Notes under the pieces: model-generated | What the model was told of the DNA's origin: nothing | What the model saw: the letters and a program-made list of their open reading frames with translations, nothing else | Databases searched by the model: none | Source of the DNA: Savitreella phatthalungensis | Lineage: Eukaryota | Length of the DNA: 64,000 bases | NCBI GenBank assembly: GCA_051599415.1 | Contig: AP039709.1 | Coordinates: forward strand, 124,001-188,000 | Direction of reading: 5' to 3' | Program-made: the position numbers and the translations under genes | Part shown: positions 1-19,430 of the stretch, in pieces | Layout: each line of letters opens with the position of its first letter | How positions within the stretch are numbered: the first letter of the stretch is position 1

Positions 1-1062
1 TCACCGGCACATCTAGACTTTGTCATCACTGTAGGCGGGACTGACATCCACGACAAGCTCATGCAAGGTACAGGATACGGTCGCTGTGTCGACTTCCTCG
101 CTCCAGGGGACCGCATCCGCACGACAGGCTTCCGAATGTTCCGGTCGCACTGGACGAAACTCTCATATGCTCGGCCGGAGACAGTGTGGTCAGGGACGAG
201 TATGGCTGCAGGCATCGCCGCTGGTGCCATCGCCACATTCCTCCATCCGCTTCGTCGGCTGACGCGTAAGCGTGAGGAAGAGCACCTAATCCACACATAT
301 TCACTGTCCCTCCTCGTCAAGACTTACCTCGCCATCTCAACCTTCGATCTAGAAGACATCCTTCCGCCACCTGCTCCAAACGACGAAATGATCCTGTACG
401 CACCTCCCAGCTTCTTACGCAACCGTCATCGCGACGGTCGTACCCGTGACAGCTCTTTCGACCGTGTCCTCGATACACCTGGCGTCGAGCCAGAAGCTCT
501 AAGTAAAGACAGAGCACTGCGCGACCAAGCAGCCATCCCTCGGCAATACAGCCACAAGCTCCTCGATGCTCAGCGCAACGACCCAAACCGCAAACTGTCC
601 CACATGATTCACCGCTTCCAAAACGGACTCGACCCTTTCGACCAATGGCCCCAGAGAAACCAGGAGCGGACTATGGCGATAATGCGCGCCTGGCGACATG
701 GTGTTGCCTATCAGACCACACGCAAACTCGTCCAGGTGCCCTTCGCTGGTCAACATCCCTTCCAGCCATTCCCGGACTCAGCATTCCCGTTTCCCCACTC
801 CTTCACTGCCGCGCAGCTCGACCTCCAGCTCTCTTGCGACCCGATCTACAACGACAAAGAGCTACACGACAGCGTCGATCGAGCACTCTGCGAGCTCGTC
901 GAAGAACACAAGCGAGCTCAAGCGTCAGCATCCGCATCTGCCGCGCTCGATGTACATGAGCTTACTCCCGTCGCCGACCACAATAATAACGACCCAGAGG
1001 ACCTCCAAGACCCCGCAAGCTCACCCATTCTCCACCGCAGGCCAGTCCGTTCTCACCTATAG
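1..1062 (+). CDS. Subtilisin-like (S8) protease, array copy 1 (5'-truncated by window edge)
   Basis: Frame is open from base 1 (SPAHLDFVITVGGTD...GYGRCVDFLAPG...WSGTSMAAG) and includes the catalytic Ser motif. It shares C-terminal blocks with copies 2-4. Stop TAG at 1060-1062. Confidence 0.9.
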   Translation, partial: SPAHLDFVITVGGTDIHDKLMQGTGYGRCVDFLAPGDRIRTTGFRMFRSHWTKLSYARPETVWSGTSMAAGIAAGAIATFLHPLRRLTRKREEEHLIHTYSLSLLVKTYLAISTFDLEDILPPPAPNDEMILYAPPSFLRNRHRDGRTRDSSFDRVLDTPGVEPEALSKDRALRDQAAIPRQYSHKLLDAQRNDPNRKLSHMIHRFQNGLDPFDQWPQRNQERTMAIMRAWRHGVAYQTTRKLVQVPFAGQHPFQPFPDSAFPFPHSFTAAQLDLQLSCDPIYNDKELHDSVDRALCELVEEHKRAQASASASAALDVHELTPVADHNNNDPEDLQDPASSPILHRRPVRSHL

Positions 1063-1330
1063 CTCGTCCTCAATCTGCATCAAGCCTCCCATATCCATGT
1101 CTATCGAGCATTCCTCAAGTCCGACATCTATCTGGCGCATGACGAGTTCGGCGATACACTGCGTCACGCGACAACAGCTACAGCGAGGCAACTTGTGACC
1201 ATAGCAGCTCGGACTTCTCAATGGCTCCATGTGTCCGACATCACTTTTCAGCATTTGTCACTCGTCGTCCCAACAACGTCTCTCGACAGAAACATCTAAG
1301 TGCGATCCTTGATCTACAGGGCCACCATCC

Positions 1331-3352
1331 ATGAGACACCTTATACCAATATTGTTCCTCATACACACGGCGTCTGCCGAGGACAATGTCGATATAGGTG
1401 ATACTGGCTGCTTCGCATTCGTCCTGTCCTCGGAGCCGCGAGGATTCATCGATTCCCTCCATCCTTCCCTTCGAGATGGGGTCGACCGGCACGCACACAG
1501 ACACGACATCATCTCCGGAGTATATCTACCGCCGAAAGCTCCGAACGCCCTCCGAAGAAGCCTCAGCATGCAGCGTGGTCTTGTCATCTCCCCAGACGAT
1601 AAGCTGCACCCGCACGCCGACCTCGTTCAAGCAGATGCGCCATGGCATCTCACCAGATCCTCCACCTTCGATCGTCTCAGGAACATCGACGACCCAGAGC
1701 TCGCACATCTTCCCTACACTTGGGACAGTGACTGGGCAGGCCAAGGCACGTCGATCTACCTCGTCGACTCAGGCGGCGACTGCTCCTACGATTGGTTCGG
1801 CAACAGATGCGGCATCACAGATATCCCCTGGCCAGGAGAAAACGGCGTCATCCGCACTCGAGATCTCGCTGGTCACGGCACGGCCGTCATGGGCGCCTGC
1901 TGCTCCAGCGTACACGGACACGCTCGGCGCTCCCCACTGCAACCGCTCAGAATTTACGATACCCACATGGAAGGCACCATCCTGCGCTTTGTCGACGTCG
2001 CCAGCTGGATCTTCGAGCAACTCAACCAGAAAATCTCACGTCGAGGCTACCACTCAACTATCCTACTCCTGCCTTCAGGAACGATAGTGCGCAGCGACGT
2101 TCTAGATAGACTCTGCGAGCGGCTCGACAGGGCCGGAGTGCTGCTCGTCACGTCCGCCGGTAACGATGCAATCGATTCCTGTCGAACGTCTCCAGGGCAT
2201 CTCGACTTTGTCGTCACCGTCGGCGCCACCAATCCAGACGATCAGATCATGATCGGTACAGGCTTCGGCCCATGTGTCAATATCCTCGCACCAGGCCAAC
2301 TCATTAGAACCTCGGGATTTCGATCGCTACACAGCAAGTGGTCCGATCTTCGCCATCCTCGCAGCGAATCTGTATGGAGCGGCACTAGCATGGCTGCAGG
2401 TGTCGCTGCTGGTGCTATCGCCGTTTTCCTCGACCCTCTCCAAAGACTCGTCAGCCACCAGCGAGCACACCACAACAGTCGCTCTGTCGCAGAACTCGTC
2501 CACACCTACCTCGCAGTCTCGTCCGCCCAGCTCGACGGTGACGTTCTCCCTCCGCCTCCCGACGAGCGCGACCAACCTCGGTTCCTCCCGCCACAGACAG
2601 TCCGAATGCGGCACAAAGATTTTAGGACGCGCGACTCCGACTGGATCACCGTCCTAGACACCCCCGGTGTGCCCGAGCAGATGCTTGCGATCGATCAGCA
2701 CGCTCGCGAACGTCAGATCCATCCGCGCGCACACGGCAAGCAAAAACGACCTGAGGAAGCGCCAGGCGAAGGGAGCAACCCACGCGAGCCCTTGCCAACC
2801 CTCACACGAGGCAGGGTCTGGTCGCATCGAGGCAAAGCTAGACTACGTCATATCAACGACTGGCCAGTGTCATCCCTCAAATCGATGGAGACTATCTACA
2901 AGCGTTGGCAAGAGGGTATTCTCGAGCACACGACAAGGCTATTCATCCATGCATCCACCAAGCATCCTTTCGCCCCTTCTCCGGAGCAACTCACAGACAA
3001 TGAGCCGCATCACGCATCAGACGCTCACGAAAGCGACGATCCCATGGACGAAGATGACCAGACACACTACCACCAGCGCCCTCACCATCTGGTCCACCAC
3101 GAATCGCATCCATACTTTGATCCCGTTCTCGTTGACCAGACCTGTAACGACGACCCAGACTTTGTCTCTCTGATGGACCGCGCTCTCTGTGCCCTCGTTC
3201 TTGAGAACTCCGCAAAAGCCAGATCTACTTCCTACCGGATCCGTAAAGGCTTGATGCATCGCACGACCATGATGCCGATCGGCAGCTGGCCAACACGCAG
3301 ACCTCCAGGCAGACCTCGGAGGACTCCAATCGCCGTTACACCAACAGCCTGA
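1331..3352 (+). CDS. Secreted subtilisin-like (S8, proteinase K-like) protease, array copy 2
   Basis: Signal peptide MRHLIPILFLIHTASA; mature start QADAPWHL; triad VDSG (D146), GHGT (H182), GTSMA (S353); oxyanion SAGN; about 300-aa C-terminal extension. Confidence 0.92.
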   Translation: MRHLIPILFLIHTASAEDNVDIGDTGCFAFVLSSEPRGFIDSLHPSLRDGVDRHAHRHDIISGVYLPPKAPNALRRSLSMQRGLVISPDDKLHPHADLVQADAPWHLTRSSTFDRLRNIDDPELAHLPYTWDSDWAGQGTSIYLVDSGGDCSYDWFGNRCGITDIPWPGENGVIRTRDLAGHGTAVMGACCSSVHGHARRSPLQPLRIYDTHMEGTILRFVDVASWIFEQLNQKISRRGYHSTILLLPSGTIVRSDVLDRLCERLDRAGVLLVTSAGNDAIDSCRTSPGHLDFVVTVGATNPDDQIMIGTGFGPCVNILAPGQLIRTSGFRSLHSKWSDLRHPRSESVWSGTSMAAGVAAGAIAVFLDPLQRLVSHQRAHHNSRSVAELVHTYLAVSSAQLDGDVLPPPPDERDQPRFLPPQTVRMRHKDFRTRDSDWITVLDTPGVPEQMLAIDQHARERQIHPRAHGKQKRPEEAPGEGSNPREPLPTLTRGRVWSHRGKARLRHINDWPVSSLKSMETIYKRWQEGILEHTTRLFIHASTKHPFAPSPEQLTDNEPHHASDAHESDDPMDEDDQTHYHQRPHHLVHHESHPYFDPVLVDQTCNDDPDFVSLMDRALCALVLENSAKARSTSYRIRKGLMHRTTMMPIGSWPTRRPPGRPRRTPIAVTPTA

Positions 3353-3588
3353 CCATTCCTAACCTCATCATCCGGACCATCACGGGATGCGTGGCATAGC
3401 ACACAACTCCGCTTATCTCGCGTGTCAACCGAAAACGATGCTCATGACTACCAATTCATTCGCGTTCCTATCACTCCGTCGGTCGGCCAGGCACCTCGGA
3501 ACGTTGTTCAGAAACACTCGTCATAGTGTTGTAATGAACGCATGCAGTCTCATTCATCGACCGCCGTCTCCATCACTCATTACTCATC

Positions 3589-5289
3589 ATGCTCCTTCTT
3601 GTCCTTGTCAATCTCCATCAAATGCTATGGTCGAGGATGCTGGCAGAGGCTCGCGAAGGAGCAGCTTCTGACGATCGATTCATTCTCACTCATGCGCAAA
3701 CGCCCTTTCTCGACCTCGTCCACCCATCCCTTCGACATCATGTCCAAACACACACGCAGGATTTCCAAGACGCCATCTCCGGCATCTACCTCCCGAGAAA
3801 CACCACACCATCTCTCCTCGCAAGTCTCAAAGCCCACAGAGGCTTCCTCACGGCCGATAACCCGCAACTAAGGCCAGCAGCCATGGAAATGCAAGTAGAT
3901 GCTTCATGGGCCCTCAAGCGAATCTCTCGGCCAGGTCGATTAAACGTGCCCAGCCCAGCGAGGACCTTCTTCCAATACGCCTTCGACGATGAATGGCAGG
4001 GTGCAGATGCGGTTATCTGGGTGATCGACTCCGGTGTCGACTCCGGTAATCCCGACTTTGGCGAGCGCGTCCTCGTCTCTCCGAGGTCACAGCACAAGCA
4101 GATGCTCGCACGGACGGACTCAACAGGTCATGGTACAGCGGTTGCAGGCGCCTCCGCGTCCACACGCCACGGCATCGCCCGATCAGCGTGGATTAGACCA
4201 GTCAAAGTCCTCGACAACTACTTGCGCGGCAACGTCCTTGACGTCATCTCCCTCGTCACACCCATCCGGACAGCAGGCTGGAAGCTGGCGAACAAGCGCA
4301 ACGCCGTCCAAATCGTCGTCTTCGCAGCCACCGTTCCCATCAATCCGGCACTCGACGTCGCCATCACCAAATTAGATCATTCAGGATTCGTCGTCGTCGT
4401 ACCAGCCTCGAACGAACCCATCGACGCATGCATCCTCTCTCCATCTCACCTGAACGAGGTTATCACCGTCGCAGGCACAACGACCAAAGACACGCTTCTT
4501 GCGGGCAGCGGCTATGGCGCCTGTGTCGACATCCTCGCGCCCGGTCAGAGCGTCAGAGTACCCGGCATCCACGGACTCCCGGCCAGACCTTTCGCCCTCA
4601 ATAGACCAGTGCCTCGAGCACAGTCCGTCTGGACAGGTACGAGTATTGCAGCAGGCTTCGTCGCTGGCGCTATCGCCATCTACCTCAACCCTCTGCGCAG
4701 GCTTTCAACCAGGCCAGAGCCGAACTACGGCGTGTCACTCTCGACCCTCGCACGATCCTACCTCGAAGTCTCCTCGATCGAGCTCCCCGACCAGATCGTC
4801 TCAGAAGGCCTGCCAACTTCCCAAGATATTCATTACATGCTCAGAGGATCCGGATATTCGCATTTGAGCCCTGACGGCCGTATGCGGAACGACATGCCGG
4901 ACAGCGAAGCCTACGTCGTCGGTCGAGTCTTCCCTGAGGATGCCCTCAAGCAGGCTGCAGACTTATACACCGCTTGGGCATCTCGCGCTAGACACTCCAC
5001 CACACGCCGCTTCCTCCAGACCTCTCTCAAACACAACTTTGAGCCGCTTGAGATCCCCCGCGACCCAGCAGCCCAAAGAGCCTACTGCGATGAGCAAGCA
5101 GACTTCAACGAAAGCGTCGAAAGCGCTCTGTGCGAGCTCGACCGCGAGCGAGCAGAACGCGCGCACGAGCGCGAACGCAAACGTCCACGCCCATCAGAGC
5201 AAGCTCATCAGTTACTCCACGCCAGGCCGCCCATCCCGCCTGAGTACAGACCCGTCAGACCAAAGCTCATCAGGCCCCAGCATTCCTAG
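3589..5289 (+). CDS. Secreted subtilisin-like (S8) protease, array copy 3
   Basis: Hydrophobic N-terminus; QVDASWAL; IDSG, GHGT, PASN and GTSIAAG motifs; shared C-terminal domain. Start codon uncertain. Confidence 0.9.
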   Translation: MLLLVLVNLHQMLWSRMLAEAREGAASDDRFILTHAQTPFLDLVHPSLRHHVQTHTQDFQDAISGIYLPRNTTPSLLASLKAHRGFLTADNPQLRPAAMEMQVDASWALKRISRPGRLNVPSPARTFFQYAFDDEWQGADAVIWVIDSGVDSGNPDFGERVLVSPRSQHKQMLARTDSTGHGTAVAGASASTRHGIARSAWIRPVKVLDNYLRGNVLDVISLVTPIRTAGWKLANKRNAVQIVVFAATVPINPALDVAITKLDHSGFVVVVPASNEPIDACILSPSHLNEVITVAGTTTKDTLLAGSGYGACVDILAPGQSVRVPGIHGLPARPFALNRPVPRAQSVWTGTSIAAGFVAGAIAIYLNPLRRLSTRPEPNYGVSLSTLARSYLEVSSIELPDQIVSEGLPTSQDIHYMLRGSGYSHLSPDGRMRNDMPDSEAYVVGRVFPEDALKQAADLYTAWASRARHSTTRRFLQTSLKHNFEPLEIPRDPAAQRAYCDEQADFNESVESALCELDRERAERAHERERKRPRPSEQAHQLLHARPPIPPEYRPVRPKLIRPQHS

Positions 5290-5529
5290 TGACCCATACA
5301 TTGGTCACGAGCTCGCGTGTCCTTACATACAGGCCACACATGGCCATCCGACCTCGGACACCATGCCAGCAAACAGCCCGAGCAAATGTCAGGTGAGTCT
5401 TCCTAACGTGAGAGACCTCCTAAAATCCAACTCACTTGATATCAAACTCAACATCCGACCTTCATCCTGTCACTCATCCACTTCGTGCACTTCTCCAGCA
5501 CCTCAAGCATACCAAGCGAAAGTCTTCGA

Positions 5530-7386
5530 ATGCTATTCCTCGGGACAATCGCGCTCGCTCCGCTACTCAGCAGCAGCGTCATCGTCGTGGGAGCAAGCCG
5601 CCTGTCGGACGAGCGACCAAAGGGTCTTGGCCAATTCGCCGTCACTCACTCAACGCGACAATTACACTCGCTCATCCACCCAACTCTCCGCGAGAAGCTG
5701 TCAGACACCGCTCTAGACTACACAGAAGTCATCAGCGGTGTCTATCTGAGCGAATCGACGTCAGAGGGTTTGCTCCGTTCACTTAACCTCCACAGAGGTT
5801 TCACGACATCCCCAAACTCAAATCTCCAACCTTCTTCACGCCACAACCAGGTCGACGCATCCTGGGCGCTCCACAGGATGACAGGTGTCGAAAGGATCTC
5901 AAACCTCGAGCCAAATCCGGAGGGTCGTGACTTTGAGTATGTCTATGATTACGACTGGCTAGGTCATGAAGCGATCGCCTGGATCGTGGACTCCGGAGTT
6001 GACTGCAGCAACAGAGATTTTTTCTACCGAGCAAAGTGTCGTGAGAAATCGGCCCACAACGCGCTCAGATTACCGTACGACGTCAACGGCCACGGAACAG
6101 CAGTCGCGTCCGCCTTTGGCGCCAATCGCTACGGGATCGCGCGCAGATCTGTCATCCGGCCAGTGCGAATGTACAACGCTCGGATGGAAGCTGATATCCT
6201 CGACTTCATCAAGATCTCTCAGCAGCTGAGGAAATCAATCAACAGAGCTACCCAGAGCAGACCATCCATCTCACACCTCGTCCTCTTCCCCTCGTCCGCG
6301 TCGAGAAACGACGCGCTAGACCTGTCGTTCCTCTACCTCGATCGTGCTGGCATCATGTGCGTCACAACTGCATCGAATCAGCCAGTCGATGCGTGTACGC
6401 TGTCTCCAGCAAACCTAGACTTTGTCGTTACTGTCGGTGCAACGAACGTCGACGACCATCTTCTCGAGGGCACCGGGTACGGCCGATGTGTTGACATCCT
6501 GGCTCCAGGCGACCGAGTGCGCGTGAGCGGTTGGCATGCTCCGGATCCCGTGCAAGACCGGCATCCACGTCCGCCCGCTATCTACAGCGGGAGCTCAATC
6601 GCATCCGCGTTTGTCGCAGGCTACATCGCCACCTGGCTCCAACCCATCAAACACCTCTCCCTGATCCCACACCCGCACAGACAAGCCTCCGTCGCGACCC
6701 TCGTCAAAACCTACCTCGCAGTCTCATCCACAACGCTCAAAAATCAACTCATCCCCATCGACCCATCCACACACCAACCACAACCCCCATCAACCTTGAA
6801 CAGATTCATCATCCCACTCACCCGACCACAGTACTCCGAAGGCCAATCGTTCGGCCCCAAGATCGATCCTATGGCACTACGCGGCCAATACACCACGACC
6901 CTGACCCCACACCAATCGACCGCCTCGGATCCCAATCCCGACTTTGCCGGCTCATCAACAGGGACGACTAGAGCGTACAGCACGATGGACATGCACATGA
7001 CGTACTCGATCTGGGTGGAAGGTGTGATGGAGCAAACGACGCGGTCGTTTGTGCACGTGAGTGAACGCCAGCCGTTTGCTGCGAACGCTGATGGTGAGGA
7101 CGGTGAGGAGGAAGGATACCGGATGACTGGTGCGAGGACGCTAGCGATGCAGAGCTGTGAGGATCTCGCCAACTTCCAGAGAGACGTCGATCGACATCTC
7201 TGCGCACTCGTCACTCAAGCACTACACCAACCACCCTCACCATCACCACCATCGTACCTCCATCTCAGGCCAAGACCACCACACACCTTCCAGCAGTATC
7301 ACCACTTCGTTCCGACTTCAAGAGCCATGCACAAGAAACCGAGAATCCATCATCAGTCCCCCTCACCAGAACCAAGTATAGTATAG
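5530..7386 (+). CDS. Secreted subtilisin-like (S8) protease, array copy 4
   Basis: First in-frame ATG at 5530 gives a signal-like MLFLGTIALAPLLSSSVIVVGA. Motifs VDSG, GHGT, TASN and variant GSSIAS; shared C-terminal domain. Confidence 0.88.
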   Translation: MLFLGTIALAPLLSSSVIVVGASRLSDERPKGLGQFAVTHSTRQLHSLIHPTLREKLSDTALDYTEVISGVYLSESTSEGLLRSLNLHRGFTTSPNSNLQPSSRHNQVDASWALHRMTGVERISNLEPNPEGRDFEYVYDYDWLGHEAIAWIVDSGVDCSNRDFFYRAKCREKSAHNALRLPYDVNGHGTAVASAFGANRYGIARRSVIRPVRMYNARMEADILDFIKISQQLRKSINRATQSRPSISHLVLFPSSASRNDALDLSFLYLDRAGIMCVTTASNQPVDACTLSPANLDFVVTVGATNVDDHLLEGTGYGRCVDILAPGDRVRVSGWHAPDPVQDRHPRPPAIYSGSSIASAFVAGYIATWLQPIKHLSLIPHPHRQASVATLVKTYLAVSSTTLKNQLIPIDPSTHQPQPPSTLNRFIIPLTRPQYSEGQSFGPKIDPMALRGQYTTTLTPHQSTASDPNPDFAGSSTGTTRAYSTMDMHMTYSIWVEGVMEQTTRSFVHVSERQPFAANADGEDGEEEGYRMTGARTLAMQSCEDLANFQRDVDRHLCALVTQALHQPPSPSPPSYLHLRPRPPHTFQQYHHFVPTSRAMHKKPRIHHQSPSPEPSIV

Positions 7387-7438: not shown

Positions 7439-9016
7439 TTAGGATGAGGGTCGATCTACGACGTAGTTGAAGGTGTTGGTGTTGTTGTTGGACCAGCCTG
7501 GTGCTTGGATGTCGCTCCTGGGTAGACCTGTGTGAGATGTGGTGGTGTTGGTGTTTAGGGCGAGGTTGTTGAGTCTCCTGTTGGCGACGTCTAGAGCGAC
7601 CTGTCTCTCGAAGGCTGCATTGGTAGCACGCTTCCACCGAACCACAACCTTGTCCACGTTCTCCGTCATCGCAGCCCTCAACACCAACCCACCCACAACC
7701 ACCAGCACAGGCAAGTACCCAAACGAGATCGTCCACCCGACATTCACTTCCGGATTGATCGGCGATACCGTGTACTCGGAAGCACTCGCGTTCGCCCAAC
7801 CAACACGCACCAGCAGCACACCCAAGCTCACAAGCACACACCCGCAGTGGATAGCCGACCATGCTGGAGGTTTGTAGGTGTCGAGGAATGCGGTGGTCGA
7901 TGTGACTGATTTTGAGTCGGCTGGAGCGACTGTGCCTGGTCTCGATCTCGGCGCGGTATTTGTGGAGATGCGTACGTCTTTGAGGGTGGATACGCGACGG
8001 GTGTGCGAGCGCACGTTCTTGCTCGATGGCTTTGTGGCGTCAAAGTCTGCGGGTAGGGTGTCGTCGAGGTCGCCGCCGTCGAGAGTGGCGCTGCTGCCAT
8101 CGGAGACCTGTGAGATGTGCGGGCCTGATGGAGCTTTGGAGATCTCAGTCATGACGACACCGTTGTCATGGTCCTCGGCGTTGTCGGGTTTCCCTTTGCG
8201 GCGCCAGTCGATGAACGGTCGCGTCGCATACCAGCAATTTGCAAACATCCACACGTTGATGCCCCATGCCACAATGGAGAAGATGGCACCGAGCTTGAAT
8301 CGTGCATCGGTCGCCTTTGCAATGTCCCCCCGATAGGCGTTTCCGAATGATCTTAGACTCGTCAGAAACAAAGCGATGAAGTCTGCGGCGTAGAATCCCA
8401 AAGGCATCCAGAAGTGGATTTTCGACGTCCGCAATTTGTCGTGCTCGGCCACCGCGACGTGAGGCCGCTCAGCACGGTAGTGGTCAAACTGGATCTGCGC
8501 CCAGTTTCGCGTGAGCTCCCAGACAGCGGCCTGCGCTGTCGCTAGTGAAGCCGGGAAGAATAGGCACCAGGCGCCCGTACTGCCACCCTGGACAACAGCA
8601 CGATCGATATCGATCGCGAAGAAACTGCTGGCGACGACAATAGCACTCGTGATGATCCCCCAGTAGAACTCCCACCGCTTTCCGTACGGATACAGGATGC
8701 TCTTGCGAGAGTAAGCTCGGCGGCCGTGTTTGTAGCATGCCGCGCACAGCATCGGGATCAGGATGATGAAAATTGCAGCAAACACTATGCCCGTAATTGC
8801 ATGCGATGCTAGTGGTTCGAGCGGGGAAGCGCAGCCTGTCCCATTCACAACAGTTCCGTTGTCGAAGATGAGCGGGATATAGCCTGGACGGACGATGTAG
8901 CATGCAGAAGCGTTACTCAGCGTCCCATTTGGGTAGAGTGTTCCGTTAGGATAACTGTCTGTGTAGTTGTAGTGACGCCAGACAGGTATCTGGCTGTCAT
9001 TGGCGTAAGGCATCAC
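7439..9016 (-). CDS. Fungal multi-pass membrane protein, DUF2434-like
   Basis: N-terminal YPNGTLSNASACY...NGTGCASP with N-glycosylation sequons; GKRWEFYW and IDIDR motifs; several hydrophobic segments. Confidence 0.7.
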   Translation of the reverse strand: MMPYANDSQIPVWRHYNYTDSYPNGTLYPNGTLSNASACYIVRPGYIPLIFDNGTVVNGTGCASPLEPLASHAITGIVFAAIFIILIPMLCAACYKHGRRAYSRKSILYPYGKRWEFYWGIITSAIVVASSFFAIDIDRAVVQGGSTGAWCLFFPASLATAQAAVWELTRNWAQIQFDHYRAERPHVAVAEHDKLRTSKIHFWMPLGFYAADFIALFLTSLRSFGNAYRGDIAKATDARFKLGAIFSIVAWGINVWMFANCWYATRPFIDWRRKGKPDNAEDHDNGVVMTEISKAPSGPHISQVSDGSSATLDGGDLDDTLPADFDATKPSSKNVRSHTRRVSTLKDVRISTNTAPRSRPGTVAPADSKSVTSTTAFLDTYKPPAWSAIHCGCVLVSLGVLLVRVGWANASASEYTVSPINPEVNVGWTISFGYLPVLVVVGGLVLRAAMTENVDKVVVRWKRATNAAFERQVALDVANRRLNNLALNTNTTTSHTGLPRSDIQAPGWSNNNTNTFNYVVDRPSS

Positions 9017-15634: not shown

Positions 15635-18600
15635 CTATCCTTGACCGACGGCGTTCAAGTTCTGGGTGTTGACCATGATGCCGTCTGTAACTTCTTGAGC
15701 TAGCATGTTGAGGAGGTTGTTGTTGTTGCCGTTTGCTTGTGGTGCAGGTGTGAGGGTGAGTGCCTGGTTGAGTTCTGTCTGCTGTGCTTGCTGGACTTTC
15801 GCTAGTCCCTGAGCGGTCTGGGTACTCTGTACACCGGTATCCTGAGCGAGCTGCTGGTTTTGGGCACGAACTTGCTGGCCCTGGCGGATCAGACCCTGGA
15901 GGGCGTTGATGTCCCGATTGGCAGCACCAAAGTCACCACGGGCAAGGTCGGTCTGGATTGACCGAACGGTTGCCAACTCAGCCTGCTGAATCCGCAAGTT
16001 CTCCGCAATGCCAGCGCGCAGACGAGCTTGTGGATTGTTACCACCATTGCCAACCACTTGACCAGCAGCGCCGGCAAAGCTCGCCCGGTTGACGCCGTTG
16101 TTGACGTTGTTGAAGCCGTTGTTGACGTTGAAGCCATTTCCTCCACGATTCAATCCATTGTTGAAGTTCTGATTGTTGAAACCTGTGTTGAAGCCGTTGT
16201 TCACGTTGTTGAAGCCTGTGCCGGCTCGATTGAGTCCATTGTTGAAGTTCTGACCATTGAAACCCGTGTTCAGGTTCTGGTTGTTGAAGCCTCCATTGAC
16301 TCCATTGTTCAATCCGTTCAATCTTCCGACGTTGTTCAGGTTGTTGAAGTTGTTGTTCAACCCATTGCCGGTATTAAAGCCGTTGATGTTGTTCAGGTTT
16401 TGACCATTCAGGCCATTGTTGAAGCCATTCAGGTTGTTCAATCCGCGATTCAAGCCGTTGATGTTGTTGAAGTTCTGCCCATTCAAACCATTGAAGTTGT
16501 TCAGCCCACGGTTCAAGCCGTTGAAATTGTTTATTCCATTGATGTTGTTGAAGTTCTGCCCGTTCAGTCCGTTGTTCAGTCCGTTCAAGCCATTGAGGTT
16601 GTTCAGCCCGCGGTTCAAGCCGTTGATGTTGTTCAGGTTATTGAAGTTCTGCCCGTTCAGACCGTTGTTGTTCAATCCATTGAAGCCGTTTATGTTATTC
16701 AGCCCGCGGTTCAAACCATTGATGTTGTTCAGGTTGTTGAGGTTCTGGCCATTGAGACCGTTGTTAAGACCATTGACGTTGTTCAACCCGTTTAAACCGT
16801 TGGGACGCTGTGCATTGAGGCCATTGACGTTATTGAGACCATTCAGACCATTCAGGCGCTGAGCGTTGAGGCCATTGATATTGTTGATGGTCAGACCGGC
16901 GTTGTTGAGGCCATTGACGTTATTCAACCGTCCATTCAGGTTATTGACATTGTTGAGCCCAGCGGTATTGAGACCGTTGTTGACGCCGTTGAGGTTGTTC
17001 AAGCGGCCGTTCAGGTTGTTGACATTGTTTAACCCAGCGGTGTTCAGACCATTCAGACCATTGACATTGTTCAATCGCGCAGCGTTGGCACCGGTGTTGA
17101 GCCCGTTGATGCCACGATTGAGACCATTGATGTTGTTGTTATTGTTGAGGGCGTTGATGTTCGTTAGACGACCGTTCAGATTGTTGACGCCGTTCAGGCC
17201 TGCCGTATTGATGCCGTTGTTGACGCTATTGATGTTGTTCAATCGTCCGCTCAGAGCGTTCTGGTTATTTAACCCGGCAGTGTTGAGACCATTGCTGGCA
17301 CCATTGACGTTGTTCAGCCGTCCATTCAAGGTGTTTGGAGTGTTCAATCCTGCGGTGTTGAGACCGTTGTTGAGACGACCAGTGTTTTGGCCTCGGACGT
17401 TGTTCAGCTGGGAGTTCAGCCCGCCGTTAAAGCCAGTCGTTTGGCCTCGGACATTGTTCAGCTGGGAGTTCAGCCCACCGGTGGGACCAGCGTTGTTCAG
17501 GTTGATGTTGATGGCGTTCTGGCCAGATTGACCCCTTTGGGCAGCATTGAGGTTGTTGGAAAGACCGGGAGCAACACCGCGATTGGCTGTATTTAGCTGC
17601 GATGAAAGGCGTCCATCAGCCTGCTGTGCAGACTGCAAAGATGTTCGCACGGCGTTATTGCTGGCGGCCGTCGTTTGTCCGGTCGCGAGCTGACCAGTGC
17701 GGACAAGTGTATTCTGTTGACCGCCTCGAGCCTGTGTCGTGGTCTGCTGGCCGCGAAGCGCATTGACAGCATTACCAGCACGACTCTGTGAGCCCGGATT
17801 ATTGAGTTGCTGCGTGCCAGTGGTACCGCCTCGCGGTGCATTGATGCCAGCGGGAACTGTCGATTGGGCAAGATTGCTTCTGACACCTCCTGCGACCTGC
17901 TGGCGATTGACCGTCTGGGTTCTCTGCTGTCCAGTGAGCGTGTTGACGCCACCAAGAGAATTTCCGCCGGTCGTTGCCCCACGAGTTGTGGCCCCTGTCT
18001 GCTGGCCTGTGAGCCGCGTCGTTGTGAGCTGAGAGGTCTGAAGTCCATTCTGCCTGGTATTCGTGGACGCTAGACCGCCGGTATTGGGCGCTGTTCTAGG
18101 ACGGGCGACCTGTGATGCTTGCAGGTTTTGTGCGGCTTGAGTGCCAGTCTGAGTCCTTTGTGTGGTGCTTTGTCCTGCTAGACGACCTGCTGGTGCTGTA
18201 GCTGGGCGATTGTTTGTAGTAAGAGAAGTGGACAGTCCAGAAGTTCCGAGCGGGTTTGTCGGTCCTCTGGCACGCCCGCCGGCTGCAATGCCAGTATTTG
18301 TCGGCGTCGACGACCGCGCCGGAGCGCTGCTTCCGGCTGCAAGTGACGTCTGCAGGCCTGTTTGACGGTTGTTCTGGCCTGTCGGAGTCGTCTGTCGGAC
18401 ATTACCACGTGTAGCAGTGAGCGAGCCCTGTAAGCCCGTCTGACTACCGCTGGTTAGAGAGCCCTGTCGCGTTCGAGCAGGGGAACCTGTAGTCGTGGTC
18501 TGACGCGTTGTTGCTCGAGTGTTTGCCAATGACGTCTGCAGATTGTTTTGACGGGCACTCTGACCGCCCGATGCCGCGGGACTTCGGTTCTGGCCTGTCT

Positions 18601-19141
18601 GAGCTGCGGGACGAGTTGTCGCACGCGTGGCTCCAAGGTTCGTCTGCAAATTGTTCTGACGTGTATTTTGACCCGCCGCAGAAGCTGGGCGCGTAGTTGA
18701 ACCTGTCTGAGCGGTGGGCTGGCGCGTAATGGCACGAGTATTGGCGAGAGAACTCTGGAGACCTGTCTGGCGAGCACCTGTCTGGGTCGTCTGACGGGCC
18801 TGAGCAGCGAGTCCGCTCGTCTGACGCGTGGACGTAGTCTGACGTGTGGTCGCTCGCGTGTTGGCTTGTGAGGCTTGGAGACTTGTGCCGCGAGGTGTGG
18901 TTGCTGCTTGCCTGGTCTGGCTCGTCAACTGTCTCGTTGACTGACCCGTCGTTCCTCCAGTACGTACCGCGGAAGTCGAGGCGGTCGAACGCTGTGCCGG
19001 AGGAGTACTAGCCTTTCGTGATGTCGGCTGCTTTTGTGGAGTAGATTGCCTCTGTGGTGTGCTCGAGGCGGGCCGAGAAGCACGCTGTGCATCACCGAAA
19101 TTGCTAAGCAGGGCAAGAAGGAGCAAGCCTGGAAGGCGCAT
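15635..19141 (-). CDS. Secreted 1168-aa repetitive protein: Thr/Gln/Arg repeats, Asn/Gly/Leu repeats, C-terminal helical domain
   Basis: ATG at 19141 gives signal peptide MRLPGLLLLALLSNFGDA. 3.5-kb uninterrupted ORF with amino-acid-level repeats. Confidence 0.85.
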   Translation of the reverse strand: MRLPGLLLLALLSNFGDAQRASRPASSTPQRQSTPQKQPTSRKASTPPAQRSTASTSAVRTGGTTGQSTRQLTSQTRQAATTPRGTSLQASQANTRATTRQTTSTRQTSGLAAQARQTTQTGARQTGLQSSLANTRAITRQPTAQTGSTTRPASAAGQNTRQNNLQTNLGATRATTRPAAQTGQNRSPAASGGQSARQNNLQTSLANTRATTRQTTTTGSPARTRQGSLTSGSQTGLQGSLTATRGNVRQTTPTGQNNRQTGLQTSLAAGSSAPARSSTPTNTGIAAGGRARGPTNPLGTSGLSTSLTTNNRPATAPAGRLAGQSTTQRTQTGTQAAQNLQASQVARPRTAPNTGGLASTNTRQNGLQTSQLTTTRLTGQQTGATTRGATTGGNSLGGVNTLTGQQRTQTVNRQQVAGGVRSNLAQSTVPAGINAPRGGTTGTQQLNNPGSQSRAGNAVNALRGQQTTTQARGGQQNTLVRTGQLATGQTTAASNNAVRTSLQSAQQADGRLSSQLNTANRGVAPGLSNNLNAAQRGQSGQNAININLNNAGPTGGLNSQLNNVRGQTTGFNGGLNSQLNNVRGQNTGRLNNGLNTAGLNTPNTLNGRLNNVNGASNGLNTAGLNNQNALSGRLNNINSVNNGINTAGLNGVNNLNGRLTNINALNNNNNINGLNRGINGLNTGANAARLNNVNGLNGLNTAGLNNVNNLNGRLNNLNGVNNGLNTAGLNNVNNLNGRLNNVNGLNNAGLTINNINGLNAQRLNGLNGLNNVNGLNAQRPNGLNGLNNVNGLNNGLNGQNLNNLNNINGLNRGLNNINGFNGLNNNGLNGQNFNNLNNINGLNRGLNNLNGLNGLNNGLNGQNFNNINGINNFNGLNRGLNNFNGLNGQNFNNINGLNRGLNNLNGFNNGLNGQNLNNINGFNTGNGLNNNFNNLNNVGRLNGLNNGVNGGFNNQNLNTGFNGQNFNNGLNRAGTGFNNVNNGFNTGFNNQNFNNGLNRGGNGFNVNNGFNNVNNGVNRASFAGAAGQVVGNGGNNPQARLRAGIAENLRIQQAELATVRSIQTDLARGDFGAANRDINALQGLIRQGQQVRAQNQQLAQDTGVQSTQTAQGLAKVQQAQQTELNQALTLTPAPQANGNNNNLLNMLAQEVTDGIMVNTQNLNAVGQG

Positions 19142-19430
19142 CCTGTACAGTACAGATGAGAAGAAGCGGAGTGGAGATGGTGGTCCGACGACCTTGCACC
19201 ACAAGGCGTCTTATACGCCGATCGAGATCGATCGTTGACGGACATCTGAGACACGTCAAGACCGCACGGGATCCGTCGGAGCTTGTTACGGCCTGTAACA
19301 GGCGTTTGAAGTCACTCATCCAGCGCAAAGTTTGAGGATGTCATGAGACATAGCGGAAGATAGATTGGCATAAATGCTGTGAGAGGTTATGCATCGAAAC
19401 AAGTGCTGGGTGCCAGGCTGGCGAACTAGA

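Follow-up and report, generated by a model that had tools for sequence, protein, structure and literature searches.

Subtilases are known to carry C-terminal extensions, some of them rich in Cys, and PCSK9 is classed with the proteinase K group of S8A (PMC9549277). In StmPr1, a PPC domain lies beyond the catalytic domain, where it may aid folding and may be self-digested (PMC12181431). Fungal pyrolysins are described in PMC2717940 as carrying a large PA-domain insert within the catalytic domain together with a C-terminal extension. Among fungi of a genus related to the present host, a lineage-specific expansion of secreted subtilisin-like proteases (OG102) has been reported for Protomyces (bioRxiv 10.1101/594028). 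A table in PMC5371821 gives 4 subtilases for each fission yeast. The excerpts of PMC6169396 and PMC5371821 contain nothing on tails, and the literature searched, which leaves out most subscription papers, holds no description of such a tail or insert in a proteinase K-group enzyme. Here we describe four tandem proteinase K-like proteases whose C-terminus is a real, constrained and lineage-restricted remodelling of the S8A end and probably not a new domain of 200-300 aa.

The gene array and its genomic setting

The window, i.e. the whole stretch of 64,000 nucleotides that was analysed, comes from a fungal assembly of 12.7 Mb in 27 contigs. The host is a Taphrinomycete, as judged by its Rvb1, for which the nearest named proteins are those of Protomyces lactucae-debilis (82%) and Taphrina deformans (81%). 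Four S8 protease genes are arranged head to tail at positions 1-7386, all on the + strand, as are the features below unless stated otherwise: copy 1 (1..1062, with its start 5' of the window), copy 2 (1331..3352), copy 3 (3589..5289) and copy 4 (5530..7386). No fifth copy was found in the 10 kb upstream. In a quick tree of 61 rows the four copies form a single clade (SH-aLRT 100), with copies 1 and 2 as sisters (SH-aLRT 97). Identity between the S8 cores of the four copies is only about 51%.

Copy 2 encodes an S8A (proteinase K-like) preproprotease of 673 aa with D146, H182, N278 and S353 intact, and the same catalytic triad and oxyanion Asn are present in all four copies. All four score above the PF00082 cut-off (copy 2, E 1.6e-14), S8 being the sole domain found in the Pfam scan of the full-length copies. 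In VIA comparisons the copy 2 model superimposes on proteinase K-type chains over 276-282 residues with an rmsd of about 2 Å (Z 35-37), and these chains score above other subtilases. The four proteins belong to the proteinase K group of S8A. Judged by their residues, they appear to be catalytically intact, and they are probably secreted. Hydropathy indicates a hydrophobic N-terminus in three of the four (copies 2-4), the signal-peptide-like segment of copy 2 being located at 1331..1378. The open frame of copy 1 (L031:9170-10000 and window 1-1062) lacks one and no one-intron model supplies it, so that copy 1 may have either a missed exon or be a non-secreted copy. The propeptide region of copy 2 (1409..1621) can be aligned to the propeptides of homologs, and its model is of high confidence (aa 31-90, pLDDT 86-95); the Pfam I9 propeptide (PF05922) gave no match in the four full-length copies. 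By alignment, model and VIA, the S8 catalytic core extends from 1622 to 2485, where the loop preceding the last helix is reached.

At E 0.001, copy 2 has 52 matches in the genome, corresponding to roughly 50 genes, and S8 genes in this yeast-like genome are often found in tandem clusters. D, H and S are kept in 30 of 43 aligned S8 rows; the rows without the full triad come mostly from a pseudoprotease-like cluster on contig C3, and two are artificially shortened rows. One S8 paralog, a 1069-aa open frame (L033:2627-5836), has a low-complexity tail of ~600 aa with basic clusters, and basic clusters also end several other S8 paralogs. On its downstream side the array adjoins a DUF2434 gene (7439-9016, - strand), and its upstream neighbour (L031:7703-9016) presumably encodes a protein resembling an iron-containing alcohol dehydrogenase. 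Further along, the - strand carries an open frame of 1189 aa (15635-19204) with a signal-like stretch, a Thr/Gln/Arg-rich part and then Asn/Gly/Leu repeats, in which a Pfam scan detected no family.

Conserved blocks, constraint and distribution of the tail

The earlier note had placed everything from 2480 onward past the catalytic domain. The first block in this region, YL.VS (YLAVS at 2507-2521 in copy 2), is instead the normal last S8 helix: it begins 39-42 residues past the catalytic Ser, falls on the last helix when aligned to sister paralogs and is modelled at a pLDDT of 79-87. This helix (aa 386-397) and the following loop occupy 2486..2560 (pLDDT 78-87) and are part of the catalytic domain. 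A canonical paralog has 58 residues from the catalytic Ser to the stop, and proteinase K-type domains have one further strand, T-x-N-L-L, after the last helix. The Pfam S8 match in copy 2 stops at aa 369, and profile-based domain ends of this kind can disguise part of a catalytic domain as a new C-terminal module. That the 200-300 aa module proposed earlier is autonomous found no support in this analysis: its first block lies in the S8 fold, its W/TTR block most likely completes that fold (see below), and about half of its length is variable spacer modelled with low confidence. The tail region is probably not one new domain.

The ordered blocks said to be common to the four proteases were all found in copy 2 and its three paralogs, although several patterns had to be rewritten. 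The first motif, present in copies 1 and 2, has the correct form R.RH.D.RTRDS (RMRHKDFRTRDS at 2603-2638 in copy 2); together with VLDTPGV (2651-2671) it is confined to this sister pair, as had been noted. The W/TTR block (2906-2938) exists, but four residues separate G and TTR (W..G....TTR) and copy 3 lacks the G. It is followed by PF (2966-2971) and by C-x14-C (3143-3190), whose Cys pair is kept in all copies, with a spacing of x17 in copy 1 as originally given. The F of this block lies 6 residues past the first Cys and is missing in copy 1. Past the usual S8 end, the tails of copies 1-4 measure 217, 252, 148 and 189 aa. Their alignment recovered the blocks, and the similarity exceeded chance in all six pairs (z 5.7-22.5), a level reached by none of 1000 shuffles. 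Averaged over pairs, the blocks are 26-40% identical, compared to 9-16% for the spacers, which, as described before, are variable and rich in His, Asp and Pro (23-33%). The W, TTR, F and two Cys are invariant in the four tails.

The coding status of the tail was assessed with low-depth contigs (depth 2-4) from two public runs of one other study. The 20 listed tail differences from the window comprise 14 synonymous and 6 nonsynonymous changes, two of the changes sharing one codon, which gives an omega of 0.13-0.19 (p 2e-5 to 3e-4), varying with the transition bias. When four unlisted differences at contig ends were added, all as nonsynonymous, omega was 0.22-0.31 with p at most 0.004. The synonymous excess indicates therefore that the tail is coding and constrained; the purifying selection on which the earlier note had made its module depend is thus present. 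An overlapping ORF at 2667-3173 was rejected as the constrained frame, since six of six differences alter its residue or stop, and no canonical intron-like match was found in the tails. The differences are unevenly spread: 3172-3259 holds 10 in 88 bases in both runs of the other study (8 of the 10 synonymous) and is possibly a divergent haplotype block spanning the Cys helix and the sequence downstream of it, and 3031-3171, covered entirely by one run and from 3091 by the second, holds none.

The tail blocks were found only in these four genes. A search of 1.84 billion representatives with the four-tail profile (hmmsearch) returned five matches, the four copies and P0007 (E 3.7e-7), a protein with 17 repeated stretches that on inspection was discarded as a repeat artefact. 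A region search for the tail among proteins of 370-1178 aa returned self only, genome-wide single-protein searches with the tail returned array copies only, and the tail profile, applied to 1890 ORFs taken from 57 loci in addition to the window, detected the four copies, the next match having an E of 0.4. The module remained unassignable to a library family, as stated at the outset: in Pfam and NCBIfam searches none of the four tails exceeded any cut-off (best E 0.27), and none matched the S8-associated domains PA, PPC, P, Fn3 or DUF1034; a PDB sequence search was likewise empty. The best scores in ESM Atlas searches, 0.77 and 0.85, are at chance level. Fold searches with the tail model gave no Foldseek match at E 0.001 and a best VIA Z of 5.3 for one helix, a result that identifies no known fold and does not establish a new one.

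Candidate terminal strands and the fold of the tail

On balance, the evidence leans towards a fold-back of the chain through a Trp-anchored helix and a TTR strand, by which the distal Cys helix would be tethered to the active protease. The chain would exit the S8 domain after the last helix as a long variable loop, at the beginning of which the old terminal strand would have decayed. An added helix (aa 513-533, 2867..2929), anchored by the invariant W526, would bring the chain back to the enzyme, and the TTR-x-F strand would fill the slot that the terminal T-x-N-L-L strand normally takes, so that the enzyme domain would close only at about aa 545. Beyond this point would follow HPF, a spacer with acidic and His residues, and a single amphipathic helix with two Cys, which would most likely be held by a disulfide and serve to bind either a partner or another copy. 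Even after a nick in the loop, this distal part would stay tethered.

The docking of the added helix and of the TTR strand is predicted by an AF2 model of copy 2 only. In this model aa 511-540, including the added helix, are docked on the protease with a pLDDT of 79-89, and strand contacts are seen at 399-400 and 537-538, whereas the flanking aa 411-510 (pLDDT 35-60) and 551-673 (pLDDT 29-52) are of low confidence. The hydrophobic moment of the added helix is 0.7-1.1 in three of the four copies and 0.18 in copy 4. VIA aligned proteinase K 1-279 with model residues 98-545 (277 residues, rmsd 2.1 Å, Z 34.9), and in each of the 17 top rows the alignment stops at 543-549 of the model. Because the W/TTR part docks and proteinase K aligns over this range, the motif TTR-x-F/L-h-H/Q (2930..2953), a look-alike of the S8 terminal strand, is most likely its replacement. 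If the end of the alignment is gapless, T534 and R536 would be superimposed on the T and N of TVNLLA in proteinase K, a register that we infer, as VIA reports first and last residues only. The 39 non-array rows of the AF2 alignment were truncated so that none ran beyond the catalytic helix, and they therefore carry no homolog hint on the position of the last strand, the C-terminal part of the alignment having a depth of 4, i.e. the four copies only.

Sequence comparisons were divided on the same point. MAFFT placed the terminal strand on TTR in all 20 displayed database rows (60 aligned), and a strand profile of 31 paralogs, selected by motif from 51 non-array ORFs, ranked TTR first in all four copies among 164-269 windows. 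Jointly, TTR scored 8.8, the runner-up among 81 windows scored -0.1, and none of 300 column shuffles reached the TTR value, the 8-residue TTR window having been chosen after the MAFFT result was seen; copy by copy, 19, 12, 3 and 178 of 300 shuffles reached the TTR score. If TTR is the strand, it lies 119-181 aa from the catalytic Ser, compared to 46-58 in 28 paralogs; of 102 database homologs with a motif match, 88 have a distance of 44-47. Measured from the last helix, the added stretch would come to about 60-125 aa. Inserts of ~20 aa occur in the equivalent loop of the database proteins P0010 and P0020. By motif, the S8 protein P0026 of Podila clonocystis has perhaps a ~55-aa insert in the equivalent pre-strand loop.

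Against the fold-back, the segment following YL.VS (2561..2593, pLDDT 56) matches the terminal strand in register when aligned to the six closest paralogs, and it appears to be what is left of the ancestral strand. This worn segment is least well preserved in copy 2 and clearer in copies 1, 3 and 4, copy 4 retaining T-x-N-R-F-I. With a 13-residue profile of the six paralogs this proximal segment ranked first in copies 1 and 3, in which TTR ranked 15 and 13; the slot of the terminal strand is thus contested, the worn strand outscoring TTR in these two copies. Profiles of 17 and 31 residues did not give TTR significance except in copy 1 (p 0.044), copy 4 being mis-anchored, a database profile ranked TTR 4, 4, 1 and 22 in copies 1-4, and the hhalign match was weak (probability 1.5%, P 0.035). 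In a tail-only model of copy 3, TTR lies within a helix. AF2 may have filled the empty slot of copy 2, the copy with the most worn proximal strand, with the best look-alike. An internal duplication of the last helix and strand was not detected (hhalign P 0.31; no informative DNA repeat).

The distal extension starts with the H/Q-P/N-F motif (2963..2971), which contains the invariant F547 in the four-copy alignment. It is followed by a His/Asp-rich spacer (2978..3139, pLDDT 29-40) of 12-54 aa across copies, by the C-x14-C helix (F...MDRALCAL, 3143..3196) and by a Pro/Arg-rich end, of low complexity by composition and model, with the stop codon (3203..3352). TTR and the Cys helix are found at 715 and 835-897 in copy 1, at 4999 and 5086-5139 in copy 3, and at 7036 and 7156-7209 in copy 4. 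The Cys helix is amphipathic in all four copies (moment 1.0-1.8); its pLDDT is 73-83 in the tail-only model and 40-52 in the full copy 2 model, in which it is not docked. The two models also differ on whether the first Cys lies inside the helix. Two Cys 15 residues apart in one continuous helix are separated by about 22 Å, so that a bond would be possible only between chains, whereas a helix that begins only at 614, as the full model has it, would possibly allow a loop-to-helix staple, in agreement with the 3-residue insert of copy 1. The sole other Cys pair of copy 3 is within the S8 domain, which leaves its tail Cys without a free partner. In a secreted protein the tail Cys would probably be oxidised, and from the sequences a disulfide between the tail Cys of the array copies is plausible. 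The targeting, inhibitory or cargo function suggested in the earlier note found no support in these analyses. An extension of at least 40 aa past the terminal strand is present in 13 of 31 paralogs, and two Cys in 2 of the 31; the genuinely new part of the tail is the HPF motif with the C-x14/17-C amphipathic helix.

The contested slot also fits, with a lower but still appreciable probability, an S8 domain that ends at the usual place (~aa 421) and is joined by a flexible linker to an independent helical domain of W/TTR helix, HPF and Cys helix, comprising ~70-90 ordered residues and hence smaller than the module first proposed. The invariant W, TTR, F, C and LC.L would resemble a small core, both helices are predicted from the tail alone (pLDDT 73-87), and the recognisable proximal strand of copies 1, 3 and 4 and the purifying selection agree with such a domain. 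However, the two helices are unpacked in the tail-only model (pTM 0.28), which matched only generic helices, a point weakened by its depth of 4; moreover, the full model is confident for W/TTR and low for the Cys helix, and the spacer joining these two parts varies from 12 to 54 aa.

It is rather improbable that the tail is a constrained but mostly disordered extension, in which the blocks would be short motifs inherited from the array ancestor without a structural role. The frequent long extensions of the paralogs, a pLDDT under 60 across most of the tail and the failure to find a relative outside the array would agree with it, but it is weakened by the selection test and by the invariance of W, TTR, F and two Cys between copies with such divergent cores, and aa 513-540 are docked confidently in the copy 2 model.

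Least probable of all is a strand-exchange switch of interchangeable terminal strands, in which TTR would hold the slot in the precursor and clamp the Cys-stapled peptide until a cut in the loop let the proximal strand take over and released the Cys piece as a cargo or signal directed at a host or competitor: there are two strand-like segments for one slot, the variable loop with R.RH.D.RTRDS and VLDTPGV in copies 1 and 2 (2594..2854, pLDDT 35-60) is long, with dibasic sites in these two copies, and other subtilases self-digest their C-terminal extensions (PMC12181431), but T-x-N has been lost from the proximal segment in three of the four copies, the segment scores only 2.4-5.2 where the paralogs have a median of 13.5, and neither a conserved cleavage motif nor a trace of internal duplication is visible.

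Comparison with known subtilases

If the fold-back through the TTR strand is true, the proteinase K fold tolerates an insertion of about 60-125 residues ahead of its last strand, and this strand can be replaced by a new one, a natural domain remodelling at a tolerant insertion site. Its reach is narrow, being limited to four paralogs in one lineage, and the Cys helix is a small orphan element.

PCSK9 is the best PDB sequence match to the catalytic part of copy 2 (E 1.7e-20, query 94-367). According to the PDB title it carries a Cys/His-rich C-terminal part, but its match to copy 2 is confined to the S8 domain. The C-terminal domain of PCSK9 is resistin-like, with many Cys and beta modules; a domain of this type was rejected for the array tails, which have two Cys each, a helical prediction and no Pfam match. 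The PPC of StmPr1 is an eight-strand beta domain, whereas the array tails have no match to PPC or any other Pfam family. The array copies differ from the pyrolysins in lacking a PA or DUF1034 match and in that their insert follows the last helix and is of low complexity. No Protomyces protein matched the array tail in the profile and region searches, and OG102 is comparable to the array by its expansion. The closest likeness is to proteinase K, aqualysin I and the fungal cuticle-degrading proteases, which share D-H-N-S and the whole fold with the array copies; from this group the array copies are set apart by a far longer Ser-to-strand distance, the change of N to R in the putative terminal strand, the added helix and the Cys-helix extension.
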